In this document: positions 15,538 to 39,408 of the stretch, one piece after another
Layout: every line of letters begins with the position of its first letter
Numbering within the stretch: position 1 is the stretch's first letter
Origin: Dehalococcoidia bacterium
GTDB taxonomy: Bacteria > Chloroflexota > Dehalococcoidia > SHYB01
Assembly: GCA_965248515.1 (NCBI GenBank)
Contig: CBDFJU010000001.1
Coordinates: 242,592 to 306,591 of the forward strand
Length of the DNA stretch: 64,000 nt
Reading direction: 5' to 3'
Program-made: the position numbers and the translations under genes
Notes under the pieces: model-generated
The model's input: only the letters and a program-made list of their open reading frames with translations
Database searches by the model: none
What the model was told of the DNA's origin: nothing

Positions 15538-15611
15538 GGGGCCTAGTCCGAGCGCCGGGTCAAGGTTTACCGGCGGGATTCCAGCGGTTGCCTCGCCCCT
15601 GGTGTCGAGTC

Positions 15612-21779: not shown

Positions 21780-22271
21780 GTGAAGCAGCCGTCTGTACAG
21801 ATCCAGGTCCTGGGATTGTCCGACGTGAGACAGGTCGACAAACCCTGGGGTTGGGAGCGTTGGATCGCCGACGGGTCCCCAGTGTTTCCCTATGCACTGA
21901 AGGAGATCTTCATCAAGGCCCCGCATCGATCTAGCTTGCAGGTGCACAGGCAGAAACAGGAAACCAACTACGTCCAAAAAGGACGAGGCATGCTGTACTA
22001 CTCGAAGGCTACCGTCGACGTCGCCGGCTTGGAATCGGGACACTACACCGAGGAGGAGTTGCGCGAGTTGGTCTCCTCCTTGGAACGACAGGAGTTGCTC
22101 TCCGGGACCGTGTTCCACATCTTCCCCGGGTTCATTCATCGAGTCGAAGCGCTCGAAGACCTCTCTATGATCGAGGCCTCTACCATAGAGCTGGACGACG
22201 TTATCCGATTGCAGGATGACACCGGCCGCGGAAGTGGCCGTATCGAAGCTGAACACCGGCGACGTCCCTAG
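21780..22271 (+). CDS. cupin-domain protein, type II phosphomannose-isomerase C-terminal-like
   Basis: KPWGWERWI, SSLQVHRQKQETNYV, FIHRVEAL and IEASTIELDDVIRLQDDTGR resemble the ManC/PMI type II cupin. GTG start preceded by GGAGAGGGAG. This is the first gene of the long operon. Confidence 0.7.
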   Translation: MKQPSVQIQVLGLSDVRQVDKPWGWERWIADGSPVFPYALKEIFIKAPHRSSLQVHRQKQETNYVQKGRGMLYYSKATVDVAGLESGHYTEEELRELVSSLERQELLSGTVFHIFPGFIHRVEALEDLSMIEASTIELDDVIRLQDDTGRGSGRIEAEHRRRP

Positions 22272-22281
22272 AGGACGCGCG

Positions 22282-23877
22282 TTGACATACAAGATCTGTA
22301 TTACGGCGGCGGGGGTTGGGACCCGCAATCCTTATGCGCGGTTCTCGAACAAGATTCTGCTGCCCGTGGCCAACAGGTCAACCTTCTCGCACATTTTGGG
22401 CAAGTTTCCGCAGGCCATCGAGGTTGTCGTCGCGGTGGGCCACCGCGCGCAGCTGGTGAAAGACTTCGCCAGTCTCGCCTTTCCCGACCGGAACATCGTG
22501 TTCGTAGATGTCGAGCCGTACGAAGGCGCCGGCAGCGGCCCCGGGTATTCGTTGCTGTCCTGCCGGCGCCTTCTGCAGTGTCCTTTTATTTTCATCGCCT
22601 GCGACACCCTCGTCGACGAGGACATCCCAGCGCCGTCGAGCAACTGGATTGGCGTGTCACCGGTGCAGGATTCCCAGCCCTACCTGGTGGCCGACGTCGC
22701 CAACGGCAAGGTCGAGCGGCTCTACGACAAATACGACGTCGAGCAGATTCGCCGGCTTTCACCAACGCCGGATGTCGTATTGGACAACGGCTTCATCGGG
22801 TTGGCGGGAGTCATGGACTACGAGACCTTCTGGCACGGTCTCGAGACCGACGACACGGTGGTACAAGGAGAACGACAGGTCTCCGCTGGACTAAACGCGT
22901 TAATTCCCCTGAAGCTGGGAACGGTGCCTTTCTCCTGGAGAGATGTCGGCAATGGAGAGGGATACCAGAAGGTCAACGAGGAAATGACCGGTGGCCAGGC
23001 CCTTATCAAGCCTGGAGAGTTCACCTATATCGAAGGCGACAAGGTCATCAAGTTCTTCGAGACACGGGAGCGTGTTAGCTCCCGCGTCGAACGAGCAAAG
23101 CTTCTGGGCGCCGTCATGCCCGAGGTTTTGGGCGCCACGGACCACTTCTTGGCGTACAGGTATGTGGAGGGTCGCAACCTGGGCGACGTCGTCGAGCCAG
23201 CCACGTTCTCGGCGTTCTTGGATTTCATGAAGGGCCACGTCTGGAAGCCGAAGACGCTCAATGTGGAGGAGCAGGCGGAGTTCGTGGCGGCGTGTCGACG
23301 GTTCTACTACGACAAGACCCGGGAGCGGATTCGACAGTTCTTCGACAATACCGGGGTTCAGGACAAGGACGATACGATCAACGGTATGTCCGTCCCCACC
23401 ATCGGCGTCATGTTCGAGGCGTTGGATTGGGAGTGGTTGTGCGACGGCAACCCCGTGCACTTCCACGGTGACCCGCAGCCAGAGAATGTGATCGTCGCCG
23501 AGGACGGCAGATTCTTCCCCATCGATTGGCGCGAGGATTTTGGTGGCATCCAGCAGTACGGCGATATTTACTACGACCTGGCGAAGATCTATCACGCGCT
23601 GAGCGTCTCGGGAGAGATCGTCAGGGGCAATCAGTACACCGTCGAATGCGGGTCGGACTCGATCTCGTACAATTTCCATGTGAAGAACAACCTGCTCGAG
23701 TTCAGGTCGATCCTGGAAGGTTTCGTTGTCGAGCAGGGGTACGATCTGCAGAGGGTCCGGGTCTTGTCCGCCATCATCTACCTCAACATCGCCTCCCTAC
23801 ATCACCAACCATACTCGTACTTGCTTTATTATCTTGGTAAACATCTGCTGCACCAACTCTTGGAGGAGAAGCGATGA
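22282..23877 (+). CDS. bifunctional nucleotidyltransferase (N-terminal) / APH-fold kinase (C-terminal)
   Basis: The N-terminus has the ICITAAGVGTRN G-rich loop and a GT-A-like nucleotidyltransferase fold. The C-terminus has HFHGDPQPENVIV...IDWRE, the APH/choline-kinase Brenner-type motif. The TTG 22282 start sits 10 nt after the upstream stop; ATG 22216 is the alternative. Confidence 0.7.
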   Translation: MTYKICITAAGVGTRNPYARFSNKILLPVANRSTFSHILGKFPQAIEVVVAVGHRAQLVKDFASLAFPDRNIVFVDVEPYEGAGSGPGYSLLSCRRLLQCPFIFIACDTLVDEDIPAPSSNWIGVSPVQDSQPYLVADVANGKVERLYDKYDVEQIRRLSPTPDVVLDNGFIGLAGVMDYETFWHGLETDDTVVQGERQVSAGLNALIPLKLGTVPFSWRDVGNGEGYQKVNEEMTGGQALIKPGEFTYIEGDKVIKFFETRERVSSRVERAKLLGAVMPEVLGATDHFLAYRYVEGRNLGDVVEPATFSAFLDFMKGHVWKPKTLNVEEQAEFVAACRRFYYDKTRERIRQFFDNTGVQDKDDTINGMSVPTIGVMFEALDWEWLCDGNPVHFHGDPQPENVIVAEDGRFFPIDWREDFGGIQQYGDIYYDLAKIYHALSVSGEIVRGNQYTVECGSDSISYNFHVKNNLLEFRSILEGFVVEQGYDLQRVRVLSAIIYLNIASLHHQPYSYLLYYLGKHLLHQLLEEKR

Positions 23878-24527
23878 CGCGGGTTGCCAGCGGGATAGCG
23901 CTCTATCTGGAAGAACAGATCGCGATCGCGAAGAACTTCCCGTCGGCCGATGTCGAGCGACTCGCCGAGGCGGTCTGGAGTACTTATGAACACGACGGCT
24001 CGGTGTTCGTGTTCGCCAACGGGGGGCCCGCTGGCCTGGCCGAGGGATTCGCGACCGATCTGAAGACGCACCCGTTTGTGTCTGAAAACAAGCATGAAAC
24101 CACCGATATCCGAAGACTCAAGGCCCATTGCCTCAACGAGTCAGGCGCAGTGATGACCGGCGTCTCCAACGATCTTGGCTTCGAGTTCGTCTTTGCCGAG
24201 CAGCTCAAGAACTACCTGAGGAGTCCTGAGCAGAATGGGCATGATCTCCTGATCGCCTTTTCCGCCAGCGGCAATTCGAAGAACGTGCTCCATGCCTTTG
24301 CCTACGCCAAGCAATTCGGAGTCACGACGGCCTGCCTGGCCGGTCGTACCGGTGGAGCAGCGAAGGATGTGGCCGACATCTGCGTCGTAATCCCGGGCAC
24401 CTCCCAGTTCCCCGGTCAGGTTGGGGCCAACGACAACAACTTTCATATCGAAGACTTCCAGTCCAGCGTGACGCACATGGTGATCGGCATCATGACAGAG
24501 AGGGTGTGGGAGAGGCATGGACGATAG
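23874..24527 (+). CDS. SIS-domain sugar-phosphate isomerase, divergent GmhA-like
   Basis: VFVFANGGPAGLAEGFATDL, LIAFSASGNSKNVLHA and HIEDFQSSVTHMV parallel the GmhA motifs, but the canonical GGSA.DAQH is altered. ATGA overlap with the upstream gene. Confidence 0.7.
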   Translation: MTRVASGIALYLEEQIAIAKNFPSADVERLAEAVWSTYEHDGSVFVFANGGPAGLAEGFATDLKTHPFVSENKHETTDIRRLKAHCLNESGAVMTGVSNDLGFEFVFAEQLKNYLRSPEQNGHDLLIAFSASGNSKNVLHAFAYAKQFGVTTACLAGRTGGAAKDVADICVVIPGTSQFPGQVGANDNNFHIEDFQSSVTHMVIGIMTERVWERHGR

Positions 24528-25356
24528 GGTCCTGCGTCTCGAGGGTATCGCACGCCGACTCCGGCTTCACACCCTGGACGCTCTTTTCGAGGCGCAGTCG
24601 GGGCATCCAGGCTCATCGCTGTCTATCGCCGACATCGTCGCATCGCTTTATTTCGGCGAGATGCGCATATCGGGCGAGGGCCGGGACCGTTGCGTGCTGT
24701 CGAAAGGGCACGGTGTCGCCGCCCTGTACGCTGCCTTTTCCGAGCTGGGCTGGCTCTTCGAAGGAGAGTTGCAGACGCTTCGCAAAGTGGAAAGCCGGCT
24801 GCAAGGGCATCCCGATATGACCAGACTGCCCCACCTCGACGCCGGAACCGGTGCGTTGGGCCAGGGACTGTCGATCGCGATCGGTTACGCGCTCGCAGCC
24901 CGGCTACAGCAAAGCGGCAGTCGGGCGTACTGCATCATCGGTGACGGCGAATGTCAGGAGGGGCAGATCTGGGAAGGCGCCATGTACGCCGGCGCTCGGC
25001 GGATCGACAACCTGGTAGCGATCATGGACCATAACGGGTTCCAAAACGAAGACTCGGTCGAAGAGACCCTGCCGATGCATGACCTGTATGGGAAATGGGC
25101 CAGTTTTGGCTGGCACGTCATCGAGCTTGACGGCCATGATCTCCGTCAGATCCTGAATGCATTCGATCTGGCCAGGGCGACGTCTGGAAAGCCGTCGCTC
25201 CTCCTCTGCCACACGGTGAAGGGGAAGGGTGTGCCGTTCATGGAGAACGACAAGGCTTGGCACAGCCGCACGCTGTCCCCCGCGGAGTATCAGGAAGCCA
25301 CGGCTTATCTGAAGAGCTCCGGGGTGGAGGGCGCTGGTGTGACGTCACATGGTTAG
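24517..25356 (+). CDS. transketolase, N-terminal (TPP-binding) subunit
   Basis: HPGSSLSIADI, LSKGHGVAALYA, GTGALGQGLSIAIG and IIGDGECQEGQIWEGA...DHNG. 279 aa, split-type. Confidence 0.9.
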   Translation: MDDRVLRLEGIARRLRLHTLDALFEAQSGHPGSSLSIADIVASLYFGEMRISGEGRDRCVLSKGHGVAALYAAFSELGWLFEGELQTLRKVESRLQGHPDMTRLPHLDAGTGALGQGLSIAIGYALAARLQQSGSRAYCIIGDGECQEGQIWEGAMYAGARRIDNLVAIMDHNGFQNEDSVEETLPMHDLYGKWASFGWHVIELDGHDLRQILNAFDLARATSGKPSLLLCHTVKGKGVPFMENDKAWHSRTLSPAEYQEATAYLKSSGVEGAGVTSHG

Positions 25357-26284
25357 TTCAGCAGTTCCTCGAATCGCCATTCGAGATGCCTTCGGCCAAG
25401 CCCTGGTGGAAGTGGGACACAGGTGGGACCATGTTGTCGCGGTGAGTTGCGACTTGAAAGGAGCGACCCGGACGCAGCCCTTTTTCACAAGCTTCCCGGA
25501 CCGGTCGTTCGAGGTCGGCATTGCGGAGGCAAACGGCCTGGGGATCGCGACCGGACTGGCCCTGGCGGGCTACCGTCCGTTTATCAGCAGCTTCGGCGCG
25601 TTCATTACCGGCAAGAACGTCGAGATTCGCACGTCGATCGCTTATAACAAAGCCCCGGTTGTGGTGGTAGGCACGCACAGCGGCCTGATAGGTCCGGACG
25701 GGTCCACTCAGGCGGGACTGCAAGACATCGCTGCCATGCGGGCGATGCCGAATTTCATCATCCTGCAGCCTGCGTCCCCCATTGAAACCTCTGCGATGGT
25801 CCACTACCTGGCAGAGTGCTTCGAGCCGGCCTACCTGAGGATCGCCCGGAACGAGATGCCGGAGATTTACGACGAAGGCTATCGTTTCGCACTCGGCAAA
25901 GGTTACGTCATCCGAGAAGGCTCGGAGGTCACCCTGATCTCGTCCGGTCCGCCGATTACCGCGGTGTTGGAGGCGGCGGAGCAAGCTGGCGAGTCGATGG
26001 ACCTGCGCGTCGTGAACATGCCCTCACTCAAACCGGTGGACGACGCTCTCATCATCCGGTGCGCGCGAGAGGCACGAGGGATCATGGTGGTCGAAGACCA
26101 CTCCACCGAAGGTGGTCTGGGGAGCATCGTTGCCGAGGTCGTGGCCGAATACGGTCTGGCCTGCCCGGTCTATCGCCACGGCATTCGCGACGTGTTCACC
26201 GAGAGCGGCACCCCCGCCCAACTGGAGCGGAAATACCAGCTGGACGCCGCCGGCATCATCACCCACCTCGACCGCTTTCGTTAG
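25349..26284 (+). CDS. transketolase, C-terminal (pyrimidine-binding) subunit
   Basis: FEVGIAEANGLGIATGLAL, GTHSGLIGPDGSTQAGLQDIAAMRAMPN and VVEDHSTEGGLGS. 8-nt overlap with the N-terminal subunit gene. Confidence 0.9.
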   Translation: MVSSAVPRIAIRDAFGQALVEVGHRWDHVVAVSCDLKGATRTQPFFTSFPDRSFEVGIAEANGLGIATGLALAGYRPFISSFGAFITGKNVEIRTSIAYNKAPVVVVGTHSGLIGPDGSTQAGLQDIAAMRAMPNFIILQPASPIETSAMVHYLAECFEPAYLRIARNEMPEIYDEGYRFALGKGYVIREGSEVTLISSGPPITAVLEAAEQAGESMDLRVVNMPSLKPVDDALIIRCAREARGIMVVEDHSTEGGLGSIVAEVVAEYGLACPVYRHGIRDVFTESGTPAQLERKYQLDAAGIITHLDRFR

Positions 26285-26318
26285 AGGCCTCTCTTTCGGA
26301 GGACAAAGGCGCCGGGTC

Positions 26319-27137
26319 CTGAAGATTACCAAAGACACGACGCTCTGTATCTCGATTGCCGGCCGGCCTGGGAGCTTCGGAACGACGGTACACAACGCTG
26401 CGTTCCAGAGCACCGGACTCAACTTTATCTATAAGGCCTGCTGCGTCACGGACCCCGAGGGGGCGATGAACGGCGTCCGCGCTCTGGGCATCCGCGGGTG
26501 TGGGGTTTCCATGCCGCTCAAGGAAACGGTTATCCCCTTCCTCGATGAACTCGATCCGGTGGCCCAACAGATCGGGGCCGTCAATACCGTGGTCAACGAG
26601 GACGGTAGGCTGGTGGGTCACAATACCGATTGGGAAGGCGCCGTGAAGGCCCTCACGGAAGCATATGTGTTCCAGAACGCGAGGGTAGTCATGCTCGGCG
26701 CGGGCGGAGTCGCCCGAGCGATCGGCTTTGGCCTTCGGCGCGCCGGCGTCGCGTCGCTTACCGTCGTGAACAGGACACCGGCGCGCGGACGAGAGCTCGC
26801 CCACCATCTCGGCGCCGAGTTTCGGCCCCTGGACGAGCTTGATTCAATCGAGGGTGAACTGATGATCAACGCTACATCGGTCGGGATGTCGTCCGACGAT
26901 GAACGCCCTGTCGTTCGGGATGAGGTCCTCTCTCGTTTCGGCGCGGTCTTCGACGTTGTGGTGTCTCCCGCACCTACCCCCACGATCGAAGCCGCAGAGC
27001 GGCTAGGAATCGCTGCGATTCCCGGTTTAAGGATGAGCCTTCACCAGGCGGCCAAACAGTTCGAGCTGTACACGGGGCGTGCCGCTCCACTCGACGCCAT
27101 GGAGCGCGGTATTCGGGCTTATCTCTCGGGGAATTGA
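26319..27137 (+). CDS. shikimate/quinate dehydrogenase-family (AroE-like) oxidoreductase; start codon unresolved
   Basis: ISIAGRPGSFGTTVHNAAF, GCGVSMPLKE, NTVVNEDGRLVGHNTDW and a Rossmann motif VVMLGAGGVARAI. The only in-frame ATG/GTG/TTG upstream of the conserved N-terminus are GTG 26112 and TTG 26130, deep inside the transketolase gene. Position 26319 is a CTG. Confidence 0.7.
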   Translation: MKITKDTTLCISIAGRPGSFGTTVHNAAFQSTGLNFIYKACCVTDPEGAMNGVRALGIRGCGVSMPLKETVIPFLDELDPVAQQIGAVNTVVNEDGRLVGHNTDWEGAVKALTEAYVFQNARVVMLGAGGVARAIGFGLRRAGVASLTVVNRTPARGRELAHHLGAEFRPLDELDSIEGELMINATSVGMSSDDERPVVRDEVLSRFGAVFDVVVSPAPTPTIEAAERLGIAAIPGLRMSLHQAAKQFELYTGRAAPLDAMERGIRAYLSGN

Positions 27138-27611
27138 ATGAAGCATTTCGTCATAGACGTCGACGGTGTGATGACCGACGGCGGGCTCTACTACACCGAA
27201 GAGGGCAAGGTGATGAAACGCTTCGGTCCGGACGATCATGATGCCTTGAACCTGCTGCGCGACGAGCTCGACATCTTTTTCATCAGCGGCGACCACAGGG
27301 GCTTTGAGATCTCCCGGAAGCGCATCACATCCGACATGGATTTTCCGTTATTCCTGGTGAGTCCGACAAAGCGCGTGGAGTGGCTGAGGGAACGGGTTGA
27401 TCTTGGAAAGACCATCTTCATGGGCGATGGTATCTTCGACCACCTCGTGTTCGATCACGTCGCCTACTCGATCTGCCCGGCGGACGCCTTCTACCTGTGT
27501 CGGGAGAAGGCTGATCTTGTCACGAACTCCGCCGGCGGGCATCGTGCCGTCGCGGAAGCTGCCCTGTCCATCTTGGAGAGGTTCTTCTCAACACAGGAGG
27601 CTCGCGTTTGA
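27138..27611 (+). CDS. KdsC-family HAD-IIIA sugar-phosphate phosphatase
   Basis: FVIDVDGVMTDGGLYY, IFMGDGIFD and NSAGGHRAVAEAA parallel E. coli KdsC. The ATG directly abuts the upstream TGA. Confidence 0.8.
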   Translation: MKHFVIDVDGVMTDGGLYYTEEGKVMKRFGPDDHDALNLLRDELDIFFISGDHRGFEISRKRITSDMDFPLFLVSPTKRVEWLRERVDLGKTIFMGDGIFDHLVFDHVAYSICPADAFYLCREKADLVTNSAGGHRAVAEAALSILERFFSTQEARV

Positions 27612-27707: not shown

Positions 27708-28526
27708 ATGACTAAGCCGGTGGCCACCCTGATCCTGCAGCGGAATCTTCCGGAATATTCCGACGCTATCGGTGACCATCTCCTGAAGTGGAACGGCGAC
27801 GTGACGGATGTCTATGTCATCGAGAGTGGCTCTGACCCCGACAAGTTGTCCAAGTACTCAAAGTTCTGGGCCAATTGGCCCGACGCCGTTGAGACGGGCC
27901 TTCGTTATCCGCGTGGCTTCAACTACGGATTGTTGGAGCTCGACAAGGCGGAGCGGTACGACTTCTACTTCATGGTCACGGGCGATGCGTTCTTCTTCCC
28001 TGAGCCGACAATCCCGATCATGCTCGAAGAGATGTACCAGTGGCCCAAGTTCGGCATCATGACTCCCATCTCGCCTGATTGGGGCGAGTACAGGGACATC
28101 CCTCTTGGGACCACCAAGTGCCACTGGCTCCTTCCCCATATAGCGTGGCTGATCCGCTCCGAGTTCCTCGAGCGGATCAAGGAGAAAGATGCCCCCACCT
28201 ACATGAACTACTTCTACGATGGGGACAATTTCCGGGGCTACGATGCCGATACCGAGGTCGGCATAAAGGCGTACCTTAACGACTATGCGTTGGCGGTGAC
28301 CGCGAAAGCCCGCATGGTCGAGCAGATCGATCTCTACGATCAGAACGCCGACATCGTGCGGACAGACCGACGCAAATTGCACAACCAACTGATGCTCGAA
28401 GAGGCCTTGGCGTGGATGAAGAAGAAGTACAACTTCGATAGCAAATGGGAGATGCGAGCCTGGGCCAAGATGGTCTATGGCGAGTTCTTCGACAGGAATC
28501 GCGAGTATGAAAGGTTCAAGCTGTGA
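27708..28526 (+). CDS. GT-A fold (GT2-like) glycosyltransferase
   Basis: ATLILQRNLPEYSD...VYVIESGSDPD and FFMVTGDAFF. It is a distant paralogue of 29345..30292. Confidence 0.55.
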   Translation: MTKPVATLILQRNLPEYSDAIGDHLLKWNGDVTDVYVIESGSDPDKLSKYSKFWANWPDAVETGLRYPRGFNYGLLELDKAERYDFYFMVTGDAFFFPEPTIPIMLEEMYQWPKFGIMTPISPDWGEYRDIPLGTTKCHWLLPHIAWLIRSEFLERIKEKDAPTYMNYFYDGDNFRGYDADTEVGIKAYLNDYALAVTAKARMVEQIDLYDQNADIVRTDRRKLHNQLMLEEALAWMKKKYNFDSKWEMRAWAKMVYGEFFDRNREYERFKL

Positions 28527-29307
28527 AGCTTGGGGTTGCCCTTTCCTGTTATCGGCACGTGGAAGACGTGGCGCTGAACGTCAGCATCATCAGGAACCTG
28601 TGGCGTTTGCAGAACGACGCGTTCATAGGTGTCTGTTGCAACCACCCGGAGTCGATCCCGCGCCTGAGGAGCTCGACGTCGACCGTGTCGTGGCCGGAGC
28701 CGACCTCCCCTTCCAGACGAAGCCGCAACTGCGCCGTCGACAGGTCGATGGCCGGCAGCGGTCGAATCGCGCCGCGGCAGAGGGCGCCGACTATGTCGTC
28801 CATTACCACGGAGACGCCCAGGCGCTGACGGCGGAGCCGATCCTTCAGGTCGTCGGGGAGATGGAAGAACGGGGGGCATGGGTAGCCGGCAGAGGGAGGG
28901 GCCTGAGATAGAACGTCGGCAAATGTCCCTATGGCGATATCGATGACCACTTTTTCATCTCCAAGACCAGCGAGGCCACGCGACAGGACCTCTGGCACGT
29001 GGATCCCGGCGCCATGCTGGAGCGAGTCAACTCCGAAGGCTTTCTGGCCTTCTCCGTCCAGGACAGAGTCGGCGCCGATCGCTACTACCACTACTCGGAC
29101 ATGTCGGAGAACGAGGTCGACGCGGGAAAGGTGCCGGTTGACCCTTTCTGCGCCGATCAGATATGCCATCGGCACATGCATCCGTTCAACCACGATTCAG
29201 CGAGGGGCCTGTTGCACGCCAGCGATTGGGAAGTGAAGCGCCGCGTGATGCAGGAGGCCTACTCCGATCGGTTTGCGCCCCTCGCGCCCCACTGGGACTC
29301 TCGCTAA
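28523..29307 (+). pseudogene. disrupted ORF of unknown function (one frameshift plus one in-frame TAG)
   Basis: GTGA-coupled start. Frame 2 (MKLGVALSCYRHVEDVALNVSIIRNLWRLQNDAFIGVCCNHPES) switches to frame 1 near 28645-28655 (EELDVDRVVAGADLPF...GADYVVHYHGDAQAL...). An in-frame TAG lies at 28909-28911. Protein-like sequence continues after it (NVGKCPYGDIDDHFFISKTSEATRQDLWHVDPGAMLERVNSEGF...) to the stop at 29307. Confidence 0.5.
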
Positions 29308-29344
29308 GGGTGGGCGAGCTCAAGGGCCTGCGTCACGGAGATCG

Positions 29345-30292
29345 ATGAAAGCGGCAATCGTCATTCTCAACTACAACCTGCCCGAGTTGACCGACTCGTT
29401 GTGCGAAGACCTCATTCAGCGGAGCCGTTGCGACTACGACCTTTTCGTGATCGAGAACGGCTCGGCAGCGGACAACTTGAGCAAGCACTGTACCCACCGT
29501 CTGGAAGAGAACAGGTGGATCTCTGGCGGCTTCAACTACGGAGTATCCGCGGCCCTCGATAGCGGTGAGTATGACGCCGTGTGGCTGCTCCACAATGACG
29601 TGAGTTTCGATCAGGAAGGCGACGTCCTCTCGTATCTTCTTGGATGCCTGGACAGGTTCCCGAGGATCGGCATCATCCAACCTGCTTGGGACAACGAATG
29701 GGTTGTGGACGGTGATTCCGGCTGGACATCGAGCGCAAAGGGCATGGCCAATCCGCTGGTCCCCGCGGCGGGCGCCGACCCCCTGGGGATGATGTTCCGC
29801 ACCGACATGATCTTGGACGTCTGCCCGCGTCTGGGTCGCAACCATATGCCGCTCTGGGACGAGTCCAACAAGCGCAACCATGGAAACGCTCAACTGACCC
29901 AGTTGGCCGGATACCGCAAAGGCTGGGCGACGGCGGTCACCACGACCTTCACCTCGTCCGAGATTCGCGAGCCGGCCGAAACCAACAGCCTTGAAGCCCG
30001 AGGTGAGGACGACGCGTCTTGGAAATCGGCCGGGGCGATCGAACGAGAGGAGTGGCTGAGAAGGCGATGGAGGGACGCCTCGTTCTTCGGGTCGCCGAAC
30101 CTATTTGCCAAGGGAGATGTCAGGGGCCTGATGCGAAACGCCGGGGCCTATGCTCGAATGTGGTTGGACCTGGGCCGGTCGAGCACCAGCGGCAAGGCGT
30201 GCTGGCTTCACGCGCTGGAGTTGTGCAAGCGAGAGTACCGGTACTTCATGGCCCGGTACCCGGAATACGCTGAGATGAAGATAGGGAACTGA
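29345..30292 (+). CDS. GT-A fold (GT2-like) glycosyltransferase
   Basis: MKAAIVILNYNLPELT, LFVIENGSAADN and VWLLHNDVSF. ATG 29345 is preferred over the longer ORF beginning at 29273. Confidence 0.6.
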   Translation: MKAAIVILNYNLPELTDSLCEDLIQRSRCDYDLFVIENGSAADNLSKHCTHRLEENRWISGGFNYGVSAALDSGEYDAVWLLHNDVSFDQEGDVLSYLLGCLDRFPRIGIIQPAWDNEWVVDGDSGWTSSAKGMANPLVPAAGADPLGMMFRTDMILDVCPRLGRNHMPLWDESNKRNHGNAQLTQLAGYRKGWATAVTTTFTSSEIREPAETNSLEARGEDDASWKSAGAIEREEWLRRRWRDASFFGSPNLFAKGDVRGLMRNAGAYARMWLDLGRSSTSGKACWLHALELCKREYRYFMARYPEYAEMKIGN

Positions 30293-30314: not shown

Positions 30315-31748
30315 ATGAAGGCGTTGGAGCACACGCTGATCGACGCCGACCTCGATGCCCGAGAAAGGGCGATCCGGGAGTTGGTCTACGATCGTCTCCC
30401 CAAGGACCCGCCACTCGAAGATGCCATCGTCGCCTCGTACTTCGTATCCTCGGAGGCGTCGACGATCGGGTCGATCGCGGTCGACGTCGCCAAGCTTCAA
30501 ACCACCGCGGTGGACAACCCTCCGCCGGGCTCACTGCTGGAGCGCTGCACCGGCCGGGTCGTCGACGTTCAGCCTTGGGACAACGATGGCCGGCTAGGTC
30601 TGGTGCGGATCGCGTTCCCCGTCGAGATCCTCGAGTCGTCGGGGTCCTTCTACTCCACGGAGATATTTCATATCGTCAGCGGCGCGGTCCAACACGACCT
30701 CACCGCGAGCACAGATGTGAAACTGGTGGACGTACTGCTGCCGGACCGTGTCCAAAAGGCTTTCCCCGGACCGGCGTTCGGCGCCGATGGCTTCACTCGG
30801 ATCGTCGGCCGTCAGCGGGCCGACTCGAACACCGGCCCGTCCCCACTCCTGGGCACTATCGTCAAGCCTTGCTCCGGCATCACCACAGACGAGCTCGTTG
30901 CTGTAGTGGACCAGGCCTGCCAGAGCGAGCAGATCGTGTTTATCAAAGAAGATGAGAACCTGCACCCCGACTTCCCCTGGTGTCCGCTAGAGGACCGCGC
31001 GAAAAGGGTCCAGCGCAAGGTGGAGGTAATCAATGCCGGCCGTTCCGGGAGCAGCCTGGTCTATGCCCCGCACATTACGAGCTCCCCCTCTCGCTTTTCC
31101 GAGCACCTGCGGACGGCATTGGACGCCGGCGTGTCGGCTGTCATGTTCAGCGAGACGTACGCCGGCGGGCTTTTTCGGTTGGCGCGCGACATCATTAGCG
31201 CCGGGTGCTACGACTGTCTGATCTACGGGCACAACGGAGGCATCGGCACGAGAAGCAGGAGTATCTACCGAGAGGTGCTGGATCTGTTCGCTCGGCTGGA
31301 TGGCATCGACTTTCGGCAGACCGCTCCCAGCGGGGACACGCCGTATCTCCGGCCGGCAGGGCTGGAGCACGAGAAGACGGAGGAGATACTCCAGCGGCCC
31401 CTTCAGGGCGGCCAACGGCCCGTGGTCATCGTACGGGCTGGCGGCCTGGACCAGGGGAACCTCTTGGCCAACCTGCGCGAGGTTGAGCGGGTTGGCGTTG
31501 ACCGGTATCTCTTCCTGTTCGGCTCGGCGATAAACGGGTTTGAGGGCTCTGACGGCGAGCCGGACCCCGCGGCGGGCGTTAGGGCAGTCGAGCAGGCGGT
31601 CGAAGCATATTCAGATCCCAGCCACACCTTCGACACGCTGTCGGGCCCGGAACACGTGGTTGAATTGTCCCAGTACGCGGAGGCAGCCGGAATGCGGGAG
31701 TTGGGTTCGTCGTTGCGCCAGCGCTACAACGATGTTTTGACTGGATGA
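30315..31748 (+). CDS. RuBisCO large-subunit-like protein (form IV RLP)
   Basis: FPGPAFG, PLLGTIVKPCSGIT, IVFIKEDENL, FPWCPLEDR, LIYGHNGG, VRAGGLD and LFGSAINGF are collinear with the RuBisCO large-subunit barrel motifs. Several carboxylase residues are substituted. Confidence 0.8.
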   Translation: MKALEHTLIDADLDARERAIRELVYDRLPKDPPLEDAIVASYFVSSEASTIGSIAVDVAKLQTTAVDNPPPGSLLERCTGRVVDVQPWDNDGRLGLVRIAFPVEILESSGSFYSTEIFHIVSGAVQHDLTASTDVKLVDVLLPDRVQKAFPGPAFGADGFTRIVGRQRADSNTGPSPLLGTIVKPCSGITTDELVAVVDQACQSEQIVFIKEDENLHPDFPWCPLEDRAKRVQRKVEVINAGRSGSSLVYAPHITSSPSRFSEHLRTALDAGVSAVMFSETYAGGLFRLARDIISAGCYDCLIYGHNGGIGTRSRSIYREVLDLFARLDGIDFRQTAPSGDTPYLRPAGLEHEKTEEILQRPLQGGQRPVVIVRAGGLDQGNLLANLREVERVGVDRYLFLFGSAINGFEGSDGEPDPAAGVRAVEQAVEAYSDPSHTFDTLSGPEHVVELSQYAEAAGMRELGSSLRQRYNDVLTG

Positions 31749-32515
31749 GCTCGCCGGCTTTTACGGCGTTGGCCCATCGTGGGGTCTGGGACCGGTACCC
31801 GGAGAACAGTCTCGGCGCGGTGCGGTCCGCCCTCGACGCCGGTTTCGGCGTCGAGCTTGATGTCCGGTTGACCCGCGACGGAGTGCCAGTCCTCAATCAC
31901 GATCCGTACGTCGCCTCGGCGGACGGCCAGCGTCTGGCGATCGACGAACACGGCCTGGACGAACTTTCAGCCTTTCCACTCGGCCGCTCTGAAGAACCGG
32001 TGGCCCGGCTCGACGATGCCCTTGCTTTACCGGGCATCGGGTCGACGCAAGTGGCCCTGCACTTGAAGGATGGCGCTCGACCCGACACTGTGGAGCGATT
32101 ACTCGATGCCATCCCCGAGGCGGTCCTGACGAACCTGTTCGTGTTCGACATCTCGCTTGAGCTTTGTGCCGAGTTCAAGGAGCTGGCGCCGCGGCTCCGT
32201 GTGGGTGTAAGCGTGGGAGACAAGAAGTATCACCGCTACTTCTATGACCTGAAGGACCTCGCCTCTGTGCCCGTGGATATCGTCTGGGCCGACGAGTACC
32301 GTCACCTGTACACATTTGAGTTCATTGAGGAGGCTCGTCGGATGGGCAAGGAGGTCTTTGCGGTCTCCCCGGACATCGCGGGACTGGTCGGACACCCCTT
32401 GGCAGAGGCGGGGTACGAGGCGTCGTGGGAGGACCTACTTCGTTGGGGAGCGGCTGGCATCTGTACGGATAAGCCTTTCGAGTTACAGAGCATGATCGAG
32501 GAGCGTGTTGGATGA
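31745..32515 (+). CDS. glycerophosphodiester phosphodiesterase (GDPD) family protein
   Basis: ALAHRGVWDRYPENSLGAVRSALDAGFGVELDVRLTRDGVPVLNHD. ATGA overlaps at both ends. Confidence 0.8.
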   Translation: MSSPAFTALAHRGVWDRYPENSLGAVRSALDAGFGVELDVRLTRDGVPVLNHDPYVASADGQRLAIDEHGLDELSAFPLGRSEEPVARLDDALALPGIGSTQVALHLKDGARPDTVERLLDAIPEAVLTNLFVFDISLELCAEFKELAPRLRVGVSVGDKKYHRYFYDLKDLASVPVDIVWADEYRHLYTFEFIEEARRMGKEVFAVSPDIAGLVGHPLAEAGYEASWEDLLRWGAAGICTDKPFELQSMIEERVG

Positions 32516-33234
32516 AAGTTGTGGTCCCAGCGGCCGGGGCGGCGAGCCGATTCGTGGAGGGTGGGTACACCGACCCCAAGCCCCTGATTACCGTTGGCGG
32601 GAAGCCGCTCATCAAGTGGGCCACTGATAGCGTTGACCTGCATTCGAGTCGAGACCAGTTCATTTTCATCGTGCGTGAGGAGGATATGGAGCGTCATTCC
32701 ATTGATCGAGTTCTGACAGGAATGTATCCGGACAGCGCCATCGTCTCCGTCGACAGCTTGACCGAAGGCGCTGCCTGCACGGTGCTGCTCGCCAGGGACC
32801 TGATCGATAGCCAGGAAGACCTCCTCATTGTCAACTGCGATACCGCCTTCAAGACTCCCCTCGCTGATGCAGCGAAGAGGTGGATGTCTGAAGTCGCTGG
32901 GATTGTCACCACTTTCGACTCGACCGACCCACGCTTCAGTTTCGCCAAGGTCGACGACGACGGCTTCGTCACCGAAGTTGCCGAGAAGAGACCCATCTCG
33001 GACCGGGCCACGGTTGGGGCGTATTACTTCACCCAGGGGGCGTACTTCGTGTGGGCCGCGGACCAGATGATCACGAAGGACGTCCGCGTGAACAACGAGT
33101 TCTATGTGGCGCCGACCTATAACGAACTGATCGCAGCCGGACACAAAGTTCGCGCGATACGGTCGGATTGGCTGGTGAGTCTTGGCACCCCTGAAGAGGT
33201 GGAAGACTACGCCAAGCAGCTTGCCAGACGGTAG
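32512..33234 (+). CDS. sugar/polyol-phosphate nucleotidyltransferase (240-aa GT-A type), paralogue A
   Basis: MKVVVPAAGAASRF..KPLI, TEGAACTVLLA, VAEKRPIS and NNEFYVAP. About half the residues are identical by eye to 35515..36237. Confidence 0.7.
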   Translation: MKVVVPAAGAASRFVEGGYTDPKPLITVGGKPLIKWATDSVDLHSSRDQFIFIVREEDMERHSIDRVLTGMYPDSAIVSVDSLTEGAACTVLLARDLIDSQEDLLIVNCDTAFKTPLADAAKRWMSEVAGIVTTFDSTDPRFSFAKVDDDGFVTEVAEKRPISDRATVGAYYFTQGAYFVWAADQMITKDVRVNNEFYVAPTYNELIAAGHKVRAIRSDWLVSLGTPEEVEDYAKQLARR

Positions 33235-33300: not shown

Positions 33301-33969
33301 GTGACGATCCTGGCGTTCATTTTCGATCTGGACGGAGTGCTGATCGATTCAGACCGGTACCATTGCCGTGCCCTCCAGCAGTCGCTTGCCCCGTTGGGCA
33401 TCGCGGTTACTGAAGCCGACTACGTTGCCCGATGCGCCGGAAATAATAGCCGGCATAACCTCGCCCTCTTCCTCGCCGAAGCTCGTGTAGAGGCCGATCT
33501 AGACGACATGGTTGAGCGGAAACGGGCTCTCTACTACAAGTTGATCGACCGTGAGGCGGTACCGGCGGAGGGGGCGTTAGATGCAGTCGGCATCCTTAAA
33601 GAGAAGAAGTACCGGCTGGGAGTGGCGTCATCGAGTCACGGCGCTGGCGTCAGCAAGGTCTTGAGTCGCTTGGACCTGGAAGCAGCGTTCGAGACCGTGG
33701 TCGATGCCGAACGTGTGCGTAACCTCAAACCGAGTCCCGATAGCTATCTCATGGCCGCCGAACAGCTGGGGGTCCAACCGAACCAATGCATCGCGATCGA
33801 AGACTCTCCCCCCGGCCTCCAGGCCGCGGTTGCCGCTGGGTTGATGGTGGCCATGGTCCGCAACGACTATAACCGAGGGCATACCTTTTCTGAAGCCGAT
33901 TGGGTGTTGGATAGTCTGCTGGGCCTGAACTCGCGGTTTCTGTCGCAAGAAGTCGAATGCATACCCTGA
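33301..33969 (+). CDS. HAD-IA hydrolase (beta-phosphoglucomutase/phosphatase family)
   Basis: FIFDLDGVLIDSD, GVASSS, KPSPDSYL and IAIEDSPPGLQAA. Confidence 0.8.
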   Translation: MTILAFIFDLDGVLIDSDRYHCRALQQSLAPLGIAVTEADYVARCAGNNSRHNLALFLAEARVEADLDDMVERKRALYYKLIDREAVPAEGALDAVGILKEKKYRLGVASSSHGAGVSKVLSRLDLEAAFETVVDAERVRNLKPSPDSYLMAAEQLGVQPNQCIAIEDSPPGLQAAVAAGLMVAMVRNDYNRGHTFSEADWVLDSLLGLNSRFLSQEVECIP

Positions 33970-35501
33970 TCGTTAACCTGGGGCTGAGAAGTGTGCGGGC
34001 CATCGTTTTCGATGAGCGCGGCCAGAAAGTGACCCACGAATGGTTTCCTGTCGGCACCTCCCTGAACGGAGACCGCGTCGAGCAGGACCCTGCGGAGTGG
34101 TGGGGGCTGGCGGTGCGCGCAATCCGGCGCGCCCTCGCTGACCTGGAGGACGTGTCTAGCGTTCGCTACATGTCGGTGACGTGTCCTTCGGGGTGTCTCG
34201 TGGTCTTGGGGGCAGATGGCGGGCTCCTTGCGCCGTCTTTGATGGTCGCCGACAAGAGAGCGCGGGAGCAGGCGGAGTCGATCCGGCAAACGGAATCCCT
34301 GTCCACGGTGTTCGAGAACGGTAACAACCTCGCTGAGGCCAGCTATCTCTGGCCAAAGATACTATGGCTTCAGGAACACGAGCCTGAGGTGGTACGGGAG
34401 GCATCGGCGTTTCTCAATGCCAACGACTACCTGGCCTATCGGTTTAGCGGAATGACGGTCACAGACCCATTGAATGCAGAGAAGCTCTACTTCGACCCCG
34501 TCACTGGCGAGTATCCCCGGGCGCTGCTGGACCGAGTCGGACTGAGCGAGCGGTATTTCCCGGAGGTCCAACCGATCGGCACCGATCTCGGACCGATCAC
34601 CTCGGAAGCCGCCAGCGAGACGGGCCTGTCGCCCGACACGCGCTTCGTTCTGACAACTTATGACGCCATCTGTGCGTTCTGGGGGTCGGGGGTAAGGAAT
34701 GTGGGCGAGGCTTGTAGTGTCTCCGGTACTTCTCTATCCTGTCGGGTTCTTTCTCTGGAGCCGGCCGGAAGGAATGAAGCGGGGATCCTCTCACAGTACT
34801 ATTCGCCCAGGAATGCCTACGTCGTTGGGGGCTCGAACAATCTCGACGGCGGTCTCCTGGAGTGGGCGCGTGACTGTTTCTACAGCGAAGGCTATACGGG
34901 CAGGCCCGACTACCTGTACGAGCTCATGCAAGAAGAAGCGGCGGCAAGCACGGTTGGTGCTCGGGGGCTCGTGTTCGTCCCGTATCTGATCGGAGAGCGG
35001 GTCCCTCGTTGGGACCCAGACGCTCGGGGCGTCTTCTTCGGCCTCGAGCGCTACCATCGCCGTAGCGACATTGTCCGCAGTATCTTCGAAAGCACCGGAT
35101 TCCTGGCTGTCAACATGATAAACGCGATTGAATCCAGCGGTGTCTCGGTCGACAGCATACGCATGTCCGGAGGCCTTTCTCGCATGCGCCACGCTTGCGA
35201 GCTCCGGGCTCACATCACCGGGAAACCGGTCCACATCCTGGCGGAGCACGAGACGGCGGCGATGGGCGCCTACATGGCTGTGGCGCAAAGCGTCGGTCTG
35301 GGCCGAGACCCGGGGGAACTCTCGCAACTCGTGCGCATCGCCGAGACCTTCGAGCCTGATAATGAGCTGCATGAGCAGTACGCGGGGTTCTACGAGCTCT
35401 TCGAAGAAGTCTACCAGAGCCTCGAAAGCGCATTTAGAAGCCGGAGCAGCTTGCTGCGAAAGCTCTCGCTTGCCGACGGCAAGTACTCCCAGAATCTGTA
35501 G
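33957..35501 (+). CDS. FGGY-family carbohydrate kinase (xylulokinase/ribulokinase-like)
   Basis: 514 aa. NLGLRSVRAIVFD, DKRA, LTTYDAICAFWGSG, FVPYLIGERVPRWD and SGGLSR. Confidence 0.8.
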   Translation: MHTLIVNLGLRSVRAIVFDERGQKVTHEWFPVGTSLNGDRVEQDPAEWWGLAVRAIRRALADLEDVSSVRYMSVTCPSGCLVVLGADGGLLAPSLMVADKRAREQAESIRQTESLSTVFENGNNLAEASYLWPKILWLQEHEPEVVREASAFLNANDYLAYRFSGMTVTDPLNAEKLYFDPVTGEYPRALLDRVGLSERYFPEVQPIGTDLGPITSEAASETGLSPDTRFVLTTYDAICAFWGSGVRNVGEACSVSGTSLSCRVLSLEPAGRNEAGILSQYYSPRNAYVVGGSNNLDGGLLEWARDCFYSEGYTGRPDYLYELMQEEAAASTVGARGLVFVPYLIGERVPRWDPDARGVFFGLERYHRRSDIVRSIFESTGFLAVNMINAIESSGVSVDSIRMSGGLSRMRHACELRAHITGKPVHILAEHETAAMGAYMAVAQSVGLGRDPGELSQLVRIAETFEPDNELHEQYAGFYELFEEVYQSLESAFRSRSSLLRKLSLADGKYSQNL

Positions 35502-35514: not shown

Positions 35515-36237
35515 ATGAAGATCGTGATGCCGATGGCGGGCCGAGGTTCCCGATTCAAAGAGGTGGGCTACGACGAGCCCAAGCCGGTAATCGACATTCT
35601 CGGTAAGCCCATGATCCAGTGGGCGCTGGACTGTATTGACTATCGTCCTCAGGACGTTATCTTCATCTGTCTCGAAGACCACGTTCGAGATCACCATATC
35701 GACGATCGTCTCCGTGGGTTGTTCTCCGACGAGATTACGGTGCTCACGACCGACGGAGTTACCGAGGGTGCGGCTTGCACGGTGCTGTTGGCGAAAGAGT
35801 TGATCGACAATGACGATGAGTGCATCGTGTACAACTCAGACCAGTTTTTCAGATCGTCCCTGACAGAAGCGATCAGGACCCGGCCCTCTGACGTAACGGG
35901 GATCATCCCGGTTTTCAAGGCGACCCATCCCAAATGGAGCTACGCCCGCCTGGGCGACGAGGGGTATGTCGTCGAGGTGGCCGAGAAAGTTCCGATTTCT
36001 ACGCATGCAACGGTGGGTCTGTACTATTTCAGTCACGGGAAGGACTACGTCTGGGCCGCGGAGCAGATGATCGCCAAGGACCTTCGGCGCAACAATGAGT
36101 TTTACGTCTGTCCCGTTTACAACGAGTTGATCCAGCGCGGTGACAAGATACAGATCTGCGAGTGCGATTCCATGTGGGGGTTGGGGACGCCAGAAGACGT
36201 TGAGCAATTCGAGCGGTACTATCGCTCCAACGCGTAG
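35515..36237 (+). CDS. sugar/polyol-phosphate nucleotidyltransferase, paralogue B
   Basis: MKIVMPMAGRGSRF..KPVI, TEGAACTVLLA, VAEKVPIS and NNEFYVCP. Confidence 0.7.
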   Translation: MKIVMPMAGRGSRFKEVGYDEPKPVIDILGKPMIQWALDCIDYRPQDVIFICLEDHVRDHHIDDRLRGLFSDEITVLTTDGVTEGAACTVLLAKELIDNDDECIVYNSDQFFRSSLTEAIRTRPSDVTGIIPVFKATHPKWSYARLGDEGYVVEVAEKVPISTHATVGLYYFSHGKDYVWAAEQMIAKDLRRNNEFYVCPVYNELIQRGDKIQICECDSMWGLGTPEDVEQFERYYRSNA

Positions 36238-38289: not shown

Positions 38290-39408
38290 ATGCCAGAGAT
38301 AGTCTTCATCGATGGAACGCAGCGGAGTGGGACGGGGCTCGTGCAACGGCTGCTCGACGGCCACTCCCAACTCGGCGTCTATCCGTTCGAAGATCGCACG
38401 ATCCTCGGACTATGGGAAGGCTACGATGATATCGACAACGCGTTGCGCACCCGGAGGCCACAGCAGCTTACCGCGGCGCTCCTCCGCTGGGGGGGCCTGT
38501 CGACCCTGAAACAACATAGTGAGGATGGCTACATCGAGTTCTCTCGCAACCCCGAGTCCTACAGTTCCCGAAATGAGTTCGACTTCGAGGTCGCGGGGTT
38601 TGTTCATGAGTTCGAAGCGAGTTTGTCGCGGCGGTTCGAGGAAGAGGGGGAGGAGCTTCCGACGGTCTCGGATATGTACCAAGAATACCTGGCTTCGTTT
38701 TACCGGACCCTTGAGCGCGACCGTCCGGATGCGGCGCCGAGACGGTACTTCGTCGTCAAGCAGCCCGAGTCGACTCCGGCGCTGCGGTTCTTTTTCGAGC
38801 ACTTCTCCAGCGGCAGGGTCATCTACGTCATCCGCGACCCGAAAGGCTGGCTGACCTCGTTGAGGTGGTTCCCGTCGTATCTCGAGAATCGAGACATCAG
38901 ACCGCTGCACTCGGCATGCGAGCAGTGGGTGCGGGAAACCCAACCAGTGTTGGGCCTTCAGCGCGAGGTCGGCTCGGAGCGACTTGCCATAGTGAGTTAC
39001 GAGGAGCTCGTCGAACACACCTCCGACGTGATGACCGGACTCTGTGATTGGCTGGGAATACCAGTCGAGGAGTGTCTGCGCACCCCCACGTTCATGGGCA
39101 ATAGCTGGGTCGGGGACTCCACCTACAAGGGCCATGAGGGAGTTTATGCGGACTCTACGGCGAGATGGCGGCAACTGCTCACCTCCTGTGAGATCTCGTA
39201 TATTGAGACCCTGTGCCAACGGACTATGGCGGCGTTCGGCGTTCCCAGGCACTCCGAGAAACGCTTGTGGCGAGGGTTGGCAGTGAGCTTGCATGCAGCG
39301 GCCCTCAGGTTCCAGTGGAGCAGGATCATTCCGTTGCGCATGCTATCGCTGTTGGTGCTCCGCTCCTTGAGCAAGCGAGTTACTGGCCTGGACTATCAAC
39401 GAGACTAA
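38290..39408 (+). CDS. sulfotransferase family protein
   Basis: 5'-PSB-like FIDGTQRSGTGLV and 3'-PB-like VIYVIRDPKGWLTSL. The protein is soluble and 372 aa long. Confidence 0.65.
   Translation: MPEIVFIDGTQRSGTGLVQRLLDGHSQLGVYPFEDRTILGLWEGYDDIDNALRTRRPQQLTAALLRWGGLSTLKQHSEDGYIEFSRNPESYSSRNEFDFEVAGFVHEFEASLSRRFEEEGEELPTVSDMYQEYLASFYRTLERDRPDAAPRRYFVVKQPESTPALRFFFEHFSSGRVIYVIRDPKGWLTSLRWFPSYLENRDIRPLHSACEQWVRETQPVLGLQREVGSERLAIVSYEELVEHTSDVMTGLCDWLGIPVEECLRTPTFMGNSWVGDSTYKGHEGVYADSTARWRQLLTSCEISYIETLCQRTMAAFGVPRHSEKRLWRGLAVSLHAAALRFQWSRIIPLRMLSLLVLRSLSKRVTGLDYQRD

Follow-up and report, generated by a model that had tools for sequence, protein, structure and literature searches.

A divergent RuBisCO-like protein in a glycan-type gene cluster of a Dehalococcoidia bacterium and its possible part in sugar activation

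The DNA analysed here (hereafter the window) is a stretch of 64,000 nucleotides from a Dehalococcoidia bacterium (contig CBDFJU010000001.1, positions 242,592 to 306,591). It contains, within a long series of glycan-type genes, a 477-amino-acid open reading frame (ORF) for which an initial annotation, made from the sequence alone, had proposed a form IV RuBisCO-like protein (RLP). An AGGA sequence lies ~10 nt 5' of its ATG (30315), inside the 22-nt gap that follows the stop codon of the upstream gene (TGA, 30290-30292), and its own stop codon overlaps the start of a gene for a GDPD-family phosphodiesterase as ATGA (31745-31748); both junctions had been read correctly. Pfam RuBisCO_large (PF00016) matched residues 176-433 of the RLP (E=1.9e-9, 37.6 bits against a cutoff of 30.1) and was present in all 120 homologues listed. 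RuBisCO_large_N gave no match on the window RLP; the N-domain is nevertheless present structurally, as described below. A phmmer search of the Protein Data Bank (PDB) with the RLP gave E values of ~2e-15 to archaeal form III RuBisCOs, and a profile of 55 family members reached E=5e-26 against PDB RuBisCOs, aligning with T. kodakarensis RuBisCO starting at residue 17, N-domain included.

An AlphaFold2 model of the RLP, with the 55-sequence family alignment as input, had a mean predicted local distance difference test score (pLDDT) of 90 and a predicted TM score (pTM) of 0.90. Foldseek aligned this model with RuBisCO and RLP chains in PDB over ~450-475 columns (E ~1e-27, TM score by query (TMq) 0.74, TM score by target (TMt) up to 0.87, 20-26% identity), and the two-domain fold, an alpha/beta N-domain followed by a C-terminal TIM barrel, was superposable on the solved structures. 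The best matches were form III RuBisCOs (T. kodakarensis 1GEH/3A12, P. horikoshii 2CWX, and 8DHT; TMt 0.79-0.87, E=5e-26 to 7e-22), which are collinear with the RLP in both domains and share its KxDE and GxxKP motifs, but at only 20-24% identity. The window ORF is a genuine, very divergent homologue of the RuBisCO large subunit, with a similarity far above chance. The collinearity stated in the initial annotation is thus borne out by Pfam, profile and fold, and the motifs that it quoted (FPGPAFG, GTIVKPCSG, FIKEDEN, YGHNGG, VRAGGLD and FGSAING) align as claimed.

Active-site residues were mapped through the alignment of the family profile with T. kodakarensis RuBisCO, checked against K163, K165 and K189 in the numbering of that enzyme, with column counts taken from the 55 family members; RuBisCO residues are given below in spinach numbering. 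K175, the carbamyl-Lys K201, the Mg ligands D203 and E204, and H294 correspond to K184, K211, D213, E214 and H306 of the RLP, all of which are invariant in the family, so that the carbamylation and metal-binding residues of the KEDE motif are retained as proposed. Against the canonical residue set of bona fide (forms I-III) RuBisCO (E60, N123, K175, K177, H294, R295, H298, H327, K334, S379, G381, G403 and G404), eight catalytic residues are replaced in the RLP. E60 corresponds to L61 (His in 52 of 55 relatives), N123 to A124, K177 to C186 (Cys or Thr in the family), R295 to N307, H298 to I310, S379 to A375, and H327 to Q335, which is invariant in the family and stands one position after an equally invariant R334; at the place of the loop 6 residue K334 there is no Lys but a conserved R346-P347 pair. 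Four of the replacements named in the initial annotation (K177 to C, R295 to N, S379 to A, and that of N123) therefore hold, whereas its fifth, H327 to R, does not, the aligned residue being Q335. Judged by these residues, the RLP cannot be a carboxylase, since those for CO2 addition and those of the second-phosphate (P2) site are lost. With the Mg/carbamate site kept and several carboxylation residues substituted, it is, by its residue pattern, a form IV protein in the broad definition, an identity also supported by the hidden Markov model match, the profile and the fold.

Conservation in the family extends well beyond the metal site. K184, K211, E212, D213, E214 and H306 are identical in 55 of 55 members, as are N307, R334, Q335, T336, R374, D379 and Q380; R288, R291, H253, H119, C78 and T63 are further new invariant polar residues, and ~60 additional positions are strictly invariant among sequences that are only 40-56% identical. 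The new polar residues imply a conserved but different substrate pocket, and their invariance, together with that of the metal and carbamylation residues, argues for a working active site. The same pattern bears on the idea that the RLP is non-catalytic or regulatory, or a scaffold for neighbouring enzymes. Some RLP classes, such as the Chlorobium type, have no assigned reaction, and 1tel/1ykw fit the model about as closely as the enzymes do; but the carbamylation Lys and the metal ligands, like K184, H306 and so many other positions, are unchanged in all 55 sequences, and we consider such a role very improbable.

The RLP and its clade lie far under every NCBIfam cutoff for RuBisCOs and RLPs. 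The RLP scored 77.9 bits with rubisco_III (cutoff 497), 66.5 with OiaX (cutoff 700), 66.5 with PRK04208 (cutoff 438), 59.4 and 33.1 with the two MtnW models (NF007095, cutoff 409, and TIGR03332, cutoff 513.6), and 44.2 with PRK13475 (cutoff 489). Representatives of the classes IV-DeepYkrW, IV-Photo and IV-NonPhoto (2qyg/3fk4, 1tel/1ykw and 3nwr) showed 20-26% identity and profile E values of 1e-16 to 1e-23, with no class clearly nearest. A search of 5.8 billion proteins returned ~1270 relatives with 40-56% identity, the nearest at 56% (P0002; P numbers denote homologous proteins and L numbers loci) and the remainder at 40-47%; in a 50%-identity representative library the family formed six full-length clusters. 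The next relatives beyond the family, at 31-36% identity, are themselves unclassified RLPs below all cutoffs. In a genome scan, the family was found in metagenome-assembled genomes of Planctomycetota, Verrucomicrobiota, Acidobacteriota, Chloroflexota, Armatimonadota, Latescibacterota, Hydrogenedentota, Poribacteria and others. None of the 185,579 GTDB species representatives scanned carried an RLP more than 45% identical to that of the window, and a metagenome scan with the window RLP gave only three distant relatives (40-42%) and no additional loci of its subclade.

A bootstrapped neighbour-joining tree with an outgroup of 28 unnamed RLP and RuBisCO representatives recovered the whole family as monophyletic in 98 of 100 replicates. 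Within it, the window RLP joined P0002 (bootstrap 87) and, with P0125, formed subclade A (100), while P0003, P0004, P0009 and P0124 formed subclade B (90). On these sequence comparisons, the RLP is a member of a large, deep and uncharacterised clade, which may be new or may coincide with one of the poorly sampled RLP classes named in 2007 (IV-GOS, IV-AMC and IV-Aful). Subclade A departs from the main family at the near-invariant positions Y60, H61, F127, E131, R161, F179, W352 and A402, which, at the level of sequence, is consistent with an altered substrate.

These results also bear on whether the RLP might be a CO2-fixing RuBisCO or the methionine-salvage enolase MtnW. Form III RuBisCOs are its best structural and profile matches, and the MtnW models match weakly. 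MtnW/YkrW (2,3-diketo-5-methylthiopentyl-1-phosphate enolase) is itself a form IV protein that abstracts a proton from a 1-phosphorylated keto compound, and its equivalents of K175, K201, D203 and E204 are kept in the RLP. However, eight canonical catalytic residues are replaced, the rubisco_III and MtnW scores are a fraction of their cutoffs, the RLP falls in a separate clade from MtnW/YkrW, and no phosphoribulokinase (PRK), RuBisCO small subunit (CbbS) or mtn family was found in the 50 ORFs scanned of the window, in line with the initial annotation. Both identities were rejected on residues, cutoffs and gene context, and we regard them as effectively refuted. With RuBisCO_large matching significantly, the RLP outside the MtnW/YkrW clade and its active site unfit for carboxylation, none of the refuting outcomes named in the initial annotation came about.

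The genes on either side of the RLP are listed in Table 1. All long plus-strand ORFs from ~21.8 to 63.8 kb of the window are of glycan type, as the initial annotation had it, and the GDPD, the split transketolase, two SIS genes and the FGGY kinase are all present; the description of this run as one 42-kb operon is not borne out, a gap of ~0.75-0.8 kb lying at 28526-29273/29345. Short or antisense mechanical ORFs are all that occurs in the ~0.8 kb (28526-29345) that lead from the end of the 272-aa ORF to where the next ORF probably starts; a promoter may lie in this stretch and set the RLP sub-cluster apart from the genes upstream. Promoter and terminator scans of the window gave nothing above shuffled expectation and thus mark no operon boundaries, and Rfam and tRNA scans were empty. 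The gene directly 5' of the RLP had been called GT2-like, a label to be corrected: a permissive Pfam scan gave PF00535 only below threshold (E=0.03, 14.7 bits against a cutoff of 23.3). The same scan gave no match for the 272-aa ORF, and PDB sequence searches with these two ORFs and with the ORF at 22216 gave no useful match.

Table 1 Genes around the RLP in the window (positions are those of the window)
Feature	Position	Strand	Remarks
Small cupin (weak MannoseP_isomer-like)	21780..22271	+	Homologues beside RLPs in 15 other loci, and 5' of the NTP-kinase gene in L093-L095
Bifunctional nucleotidyltransferase (NTP_transf_3) and APH-type kinase (NTP-APH)	22216..23877	+	38% identical to 544-aa RLP partner in L002
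SIS-domain sugar-phosphate isomerase	23874..24527	+	GmhA-like, below cutoff
Split transketolase	24517..26284	+	N-terminal subunit 24517-25356; C-terminal subunit 25349-26284
AroE-like (shikimate dehydrogenase family) NAD(P) oxidoreductase	26112..27137	+	Real start probably near 26281-26325; 42% to gene directly 5' of L002 RLP
Small HAD phosphatase (Hydrolase_3/KdsC-like)	27138..27611	+	47% to gene directly 3' of L002 RLP
272-aa ORF	27708..28526	+	No detectable family
ORF directly 5' of RLP	29273..30292	+	Likely real start near 29345 (MKAAIVILNYN); sub-threshold GT2 match only
RLP	30315..31748	+	477 aa, ATG start; N-domain and TIM barrel
GDPD-family phosphodiesterase	31745..32515	+	HRG/PENS/ELDV/HD catalytic motifs kept; same gene 3' of RLP in L001 and L088
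Sugar-phosphate nucleotidyltransferase NTP1	32512..33234	+	51% identical to L001 NTP_transferase after RLP-GDPD
HAD hydrolase, beta-phosphoglucomutase family (mutase or phosphatase)	33301..33969	+	
FGGY-family sugar (ketose/polyol) kinase	33957..35501	+	Best match xylulokinase-like, below cutoff
Second sugar-phosphate nucleotidyltransferase NTP2	35515..36237	+	47% identical to L001 NTP_transferase

The window GDPD belongs to a rare subfamily, with seven close homologues (P0391-P0397, 39-57% identity) among 5.8 billion proteins, one of which (P0394) is the gene next to the nearest RLP relative; beyond these, matches fall to generic Streptomyces-type GDPDs with E values of ~1e-10 to 1e-11. 3' of NTP2 follow, in order, an ABC exporter, then a sulfotransferase, an epimerase, an RGP-like protein and methyltransferases, several GT2/GT4 genes, a HAD-SIS fusion, a CMP-transferase/SDR/NeuB set, and finally a GLF-like mutase, a carbamoyltransferase and an asparagine synthase. 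Within this run, a second sugar module (44552-50120) comprises the HAD-SIS fusion, a xylose-isomerase-like TIM protein, a GFO_IDH_MocA oxidoreductase, a CTP_transf_3 cytidylyltransferase (CMP-type), an SDR and a NeuB-family synthase, and its predicted content suggests that the cluster also makes a nonulosonic or ulosonic acid. Putative decorating enzymes at 38290-39408, 40567-41685, 53930-55171 and 56292-57986 (the sulfotransferase, the RGP-like protein, the UDP-galactopyranose-mutase-like flavoenzyme and the carbamoyltransferase) point to a heavily modified glycan, probably sulfated, carbamoylated and furanose-containing. Further upstream in the window are a DUF3090 gene (2058-2573, plus strand), a gene for a 1166-aa DUF4012 protein (12037-15537, minus strand) and one for a Wzz/ParA-type chain-length regulator-kinase (15588-17333, plus strand); DUF3090 and DUF4012 are families typical of Actinomycetota.

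We surveyed 85 loci of the family, disregarding antisense artefacts that greedy ORF calling produced in GC-rich loci. The three loci of subclade A all place a GDPD gene directly 3' of the RLP gene with overlapping reading frames. In that of P0002 (L001), an aldo-keto reductase, an unassigned ORF, the RLP, the GDPD, an NTP_transferase, a GatZ/KbaZ-like protein and a TylF methyltransferase lie within a deoxysugar and glycosyltransferase cluster; in that of P0125 (L088), on a tiny contig, a GDPD fragment overlaps the end of the RLP. A homologous nucleotidyltransferase is next after the GDPD in both subclade A loci with enough flank, and the window proteins are 45% (GDPD), 51% (NTP1) and 47% (NTP2) identical to those of L001. 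In subclade B, two loci (L002 and L003) carry an AroE-like protein, the RLP, a small HAD, an NTP-APH protein, a GatZ-like protein, a cupin and GT9; the P0004 locus has a GHMP kinase, an NTP_transferase-GatZ fusion, the RLP and Hydrolase_3, and L089 has the RLP, Hydrolase_3 and GT2. Four of the L002 partners recur in the window as homologues (cupin 40%, NTP-APH 38%, AroE-like 42% and HAD 47% identity). These gene neighbourhoods of subclades A and B imply that the link of this RLP branch to sugar activation is conserved and not accidental.

The rest of the family presents a different picture. A GFO_IDH_MocA gene flanks the RLP in 36 of the 85 loci, and the recurrent order in the main family is RLP, GFO, xylose-isomerase-like TIM protein (AP_endonuc_2), alpha/beta hydrolase, RPE-like epimerase and PfkB kinase. 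The apparently catabolic operon at L082 (9959-17974) shows this arrangement, with a 448-aa ORF and a second TIM gene at its end; operons of this type also occur in L051, L055, L033, L030, L080 and others and are widespread in Planctomycetota and Verrucomicrobiota. At L012 (9010-15333; also L007, L013, L018, L021 and L070), the order is DeoR, RLP, SIS, E1alpha, E1beta and E2, the last three resembling 2-oxoacid or acetoin dehydrogenases, so that the RLP is paired with a SIS protein and a thiamine diphosphate enzyme; the window likewise has a SIS protein and a split transketolase. A further context is cupin, mannitol-dehydrogenase-like protein and RLP. In subclade C (P0017; L086, 1386-8466), genes for an aldehyde:ferredoxin oxidoreductase and a ferredoxin lie 5' of the RLP, with AroE-like and shikimate-kinase-like genes also upstream, so that AroE-like enzymes recur here too in the vicinity of the family.

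The window RLP might be a catabolic or salvage enzyme, as most of its family appears to be, that landed among the glycan genes by chance or through horizontal insertion, in which case it would have no glycan role. This possibility draws on the GFO-flanked loci and on the many loci with the hydrolase/PfkB or DeoR/E1/E2 arrangement just described, and also on the fact that the upstream genes of the window exist elsewhere without an RLP. We nevertheless judge it decidedly unlikely, because the RLP is translationally coupled to the GDPD, the RLP-GDPD pair recurs throughout subclade A with a nucleotidyltransferase next in both flanked loci, four more partner families are common to subclade B loci from unrelated samples, and no catabolic-type regulator or transporter adjoins the window RLP. 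The survey of the closest homologues, which the initial annotation had recommended, thus disfavours a chance insertion through the conserved GDPD and nucleotidyltransferase and the kinase, GatZ-like, HAD and AroE-like partners.

The seven genes from the cupin to the small HAD phosphatase (cupin, NTP-APH, SIS, the N- and C-terminal transketolase subunits, AroE-like and HAD; 21780-27611, plus strand) form a cassette that also occurs in glycan clusters from unrelated metagenomes at L093 (9510-17280) and L094 (8968-14803), with 44-74% identity and no RLP within 10 kb. On gene order, the cassette is therefore an independent unit, with the RLP either added to it or belonging to a second one; its product is presumably an NDP-activated sugar from a transketolase-derived ketose phosphate. 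In some proteins of the NTP-APH family (887-941 aa; P0337, P0360, P0370, P0386, and L095 10001-12826), a GatZ/KbaZ-like domain is attached at the C terminus. By their domain composition, these fusions and the NTP_transferase-GatZ fusion beside the RLP in the P0004 locus link nucleotidyl activation, in the Rosetta-stone sense, to a putative GatZ-like aldolase or epimerase. In L002, the RLP and a GatZ-like protein hold the position that SIS and transketolase hold in the window, L093 and L094, which suggests, from very few loci, two alternative routes of ketose-phosphate supply and isomerisation.

Taking these observations together, we favour, with moderate confidence, the interpretation that the RLP is a catalytically active form IV protein recruited to the synthesis of an activated sugar or polyol phosphate for a surface glycan. 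On the best reading, we infer that it enolises a ketose phosphate with the aid of Mg, as an isomerase or epimerase, on the way to an NDP-sugar or polyol-phosphate precursor. Formation of an enediolate on a RuBP-like keto-phosphate is common to all characterised RLPs (PMC10176493), which differ in the later steps; these include reprotonation, isomerisation, decarboxylation or transcarboxylation, and oxygenation (PMC10176493; PMC6302742). In the window RLP, carbamylated Lys211, Asp213 and Glu214 would hold Mg2+, as in all characterised RLPs, and the carbamate or Lys184/His306 would abstract the proton beside the carbonyl of a phosphorylated ketose to give a Mg-stabilised enediolate. Since the residues for CO2 addition and the second phosphate are gone, the enediolate would simply be reprotonated, yielding either an epimer or, by a 1,3-shift, a keto isomer. 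Such proton-transfer chemistry is suggested by the conserved Mg/carbamate site with K184 and H306, by the loss of the CO2-addition and P2-site residues, and, as regards a ketose phosphate as substrate, by the recurrent ketose and polyol neighbours. These include FGGY, PfkB, GHMP and APH kinases, mannitol-dehydrogenase-like and AroE-like dehydrogenases, SIS, cupin and RPE-like isomerases, and GatZ-like proteins; elsewhere in the family, mannitol-dehydrogenase-like proteins, cupin isomerases, PfkB kinases, RPE-like epimerases and SIS proteins stand beside the RLP.

In the window, either the FGGY kinase or the split transketolase together with the SIS isomerase would supply the ketose phosphate; in relatives, a GatZ/KbaZ-like aldolase or epimerase would do so. 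The RLP product would then be reduced by the AroE-like protein and its phosphate moved or removed by a HAD enzyme; the adjacent nucleotidyltransferase or nucleotidyltransferases would couple it to a nucleotide, for use by glycosyltransferases or a phosphotransferase. The GDPD, whose gene is translationally coupled to that of the RLP, may act at some step of the same short pathway. Much of this logic is familiar from the NDP-heptose (GmhA/HddA/GmhB/HddC) and CDP-alditol (TarI/TarJ-type) pathways, which use a sugar-phosphate isomerase, a kinase, a HAD phosphatase and a nucleotidyltransferase, and in which a dehydrogenase could make a polyol phosphate. Isomerase, kinase, HAD phosphatase, nucleotidyltransferase and dehydrogenase types also surround the window RLP. 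In the window, however, GmhA and the named transferases are matched only below their curated cutoffs, and we know of no such pathway with an RLP, a GDPD or a GatZ/KbaZ-like protein.

Among RLPs, that of R. rubrum (DeepYkrW type; 5-methylthio-D-ribulose-1-phosphate 1,3-isomerase) offers a close chemical model: it has the common large-subunit fold, has lost the second-phosphate site, and uses the carbamyl-Lys/Mg site to enolise a ketose phosphate that is reprotonated elsewhere, chemistry that for the window RLP is only proposed. The related structure 2qyg matches our model with a TMq of 0.71. The two proteins are only ~20% identical, however (family profile E=3e-16), and the R. rubrum RLP works in the salvage of 5'-methylthioadenosine (MTA) and S-adenosylmethionine, whereas the partners of the window RLP are nucleotidyltransferases, a GDPD and glycan genes.

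Several points weigh against a biosynthetic role. Most family members stand in catabolic-looking sugar operons, so that degradative chemistry is the ancestral expectation, and the biosynthetic context rests on ~6 informative loci. Subclades A and B were sisters with a bootstrap of only 36, and the GatZ/KbaZ-like gene found in three of the four other subclade A and B loci with flank is missing from the window. The occurrence of the cassette without an RLP in L093 and L094 means that the RLP is dispensable for the product of the cassette itself, and two unassigned genes and the ~0.8-kb gap separate the two.

The main alternative is that the RLP performs C-C chemistry (decarboxylation, transcarboxylation or hydrolysis, or oxygenation of a beta-keto sugar or sugar-acid phosphate, or an acyloin-type rearrangement) and so produces a shortened or branched glycan sugar. 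Known RLPs include decarboxylases, a transcarboxylase/hydrolase and an oxygenase that act on branched sugars (PMC6302742; PMC10176493), with precedents in the RLPs of hamamelose and of D-apiose catabolism. The latter, OiaX (3-oxo-isoapionate-4-phosphate decarboxylase) and OiaT (transcarboxylase/hydrolase), act on unusual sugar-derived keto phosphates in multi-enzyme sugar pathways, and OiaX is among the best NCBIfam matches, with a score similar to those of the other RLP models. In addition, the main-family operon, with its GFO dehydrogenase, alpha/beta hydrolase, kinase and RLP, resembles routes that oxidise, hydrolyse, phosphorylate and cleave sugar acids, and the window cluster itself appears to make ulosonic acids (NeuB, CMP-transferase). 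By contrast, the OiaX score is far below its cutoff, OiaX and OiaT are catabolic enzymes with a sugar-acid substrate whereas the context in the window is biosynthetic, and no DUF1537-type sugar-acid kinase or lactonase lies beside the RLP in subclades A and B. The immediate partners, a kinase, a phosphatase and a nucleotidyltransferase, are typical of neutral sugar-1-phosphate activation. We therefore hold C-C chemistry to be unlikely.

The proposed role in sugar activation can be extended, tentatively, to a more specific proposal that is possible but on balance doubtful. In a widespread NDP-sugar cassette, the GatZ/KbaZ-like protein and the RLP would either extend transketolase and SIS or take their place as non-orthologous substitutes, and the RLP with its dedicated GDPD would make an undescribed ketose-derived unit, possibly branched or a polyol phosphate, that is nucleotide-activated and built into a surface glycan; this would be the first anabolic RLP.

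Few RLP reactions are known, and all belong to salvage or catabolism, namely of methionine/MTA, apiose, hamamelose and four-carbon sugar acids (PMC10176493, PMC6302742, PMC7325909). One genome paper described an RLP of unassigned function that has relatives in Planctomycetes and stands beside an epimerase and a DeoR regulator, and guessed at a role as a sugar epimerase (PMC7325909); this protein may belong to the same broad family as the window RLP. Full-text literature searches found no report of an RLP in the biosynthesis of glycans, capsules, lipopolysaccharide, teichoic acids or nucleotide sugars, in agreement with the initial annotation as regards glycans. The superfamily and the first catalytic step are therefore known from precedent, whereas the clade, the gene partners and the putative anabolic role are new. 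If correct, this would be the first RLP tied to the making of a sugar building block and not to salvage or breakdown. Such a role would widen the functional range of the RuBisCO superfamily and would point to an undescribed monosaccharide or polyol phosphate in bacterial glycans. The compact gene set of RLP, GDPD and nucleotidyltransferase, in some loci with GatZ, provides a testable handle on a family of ~1270 proteins without an assigned function.

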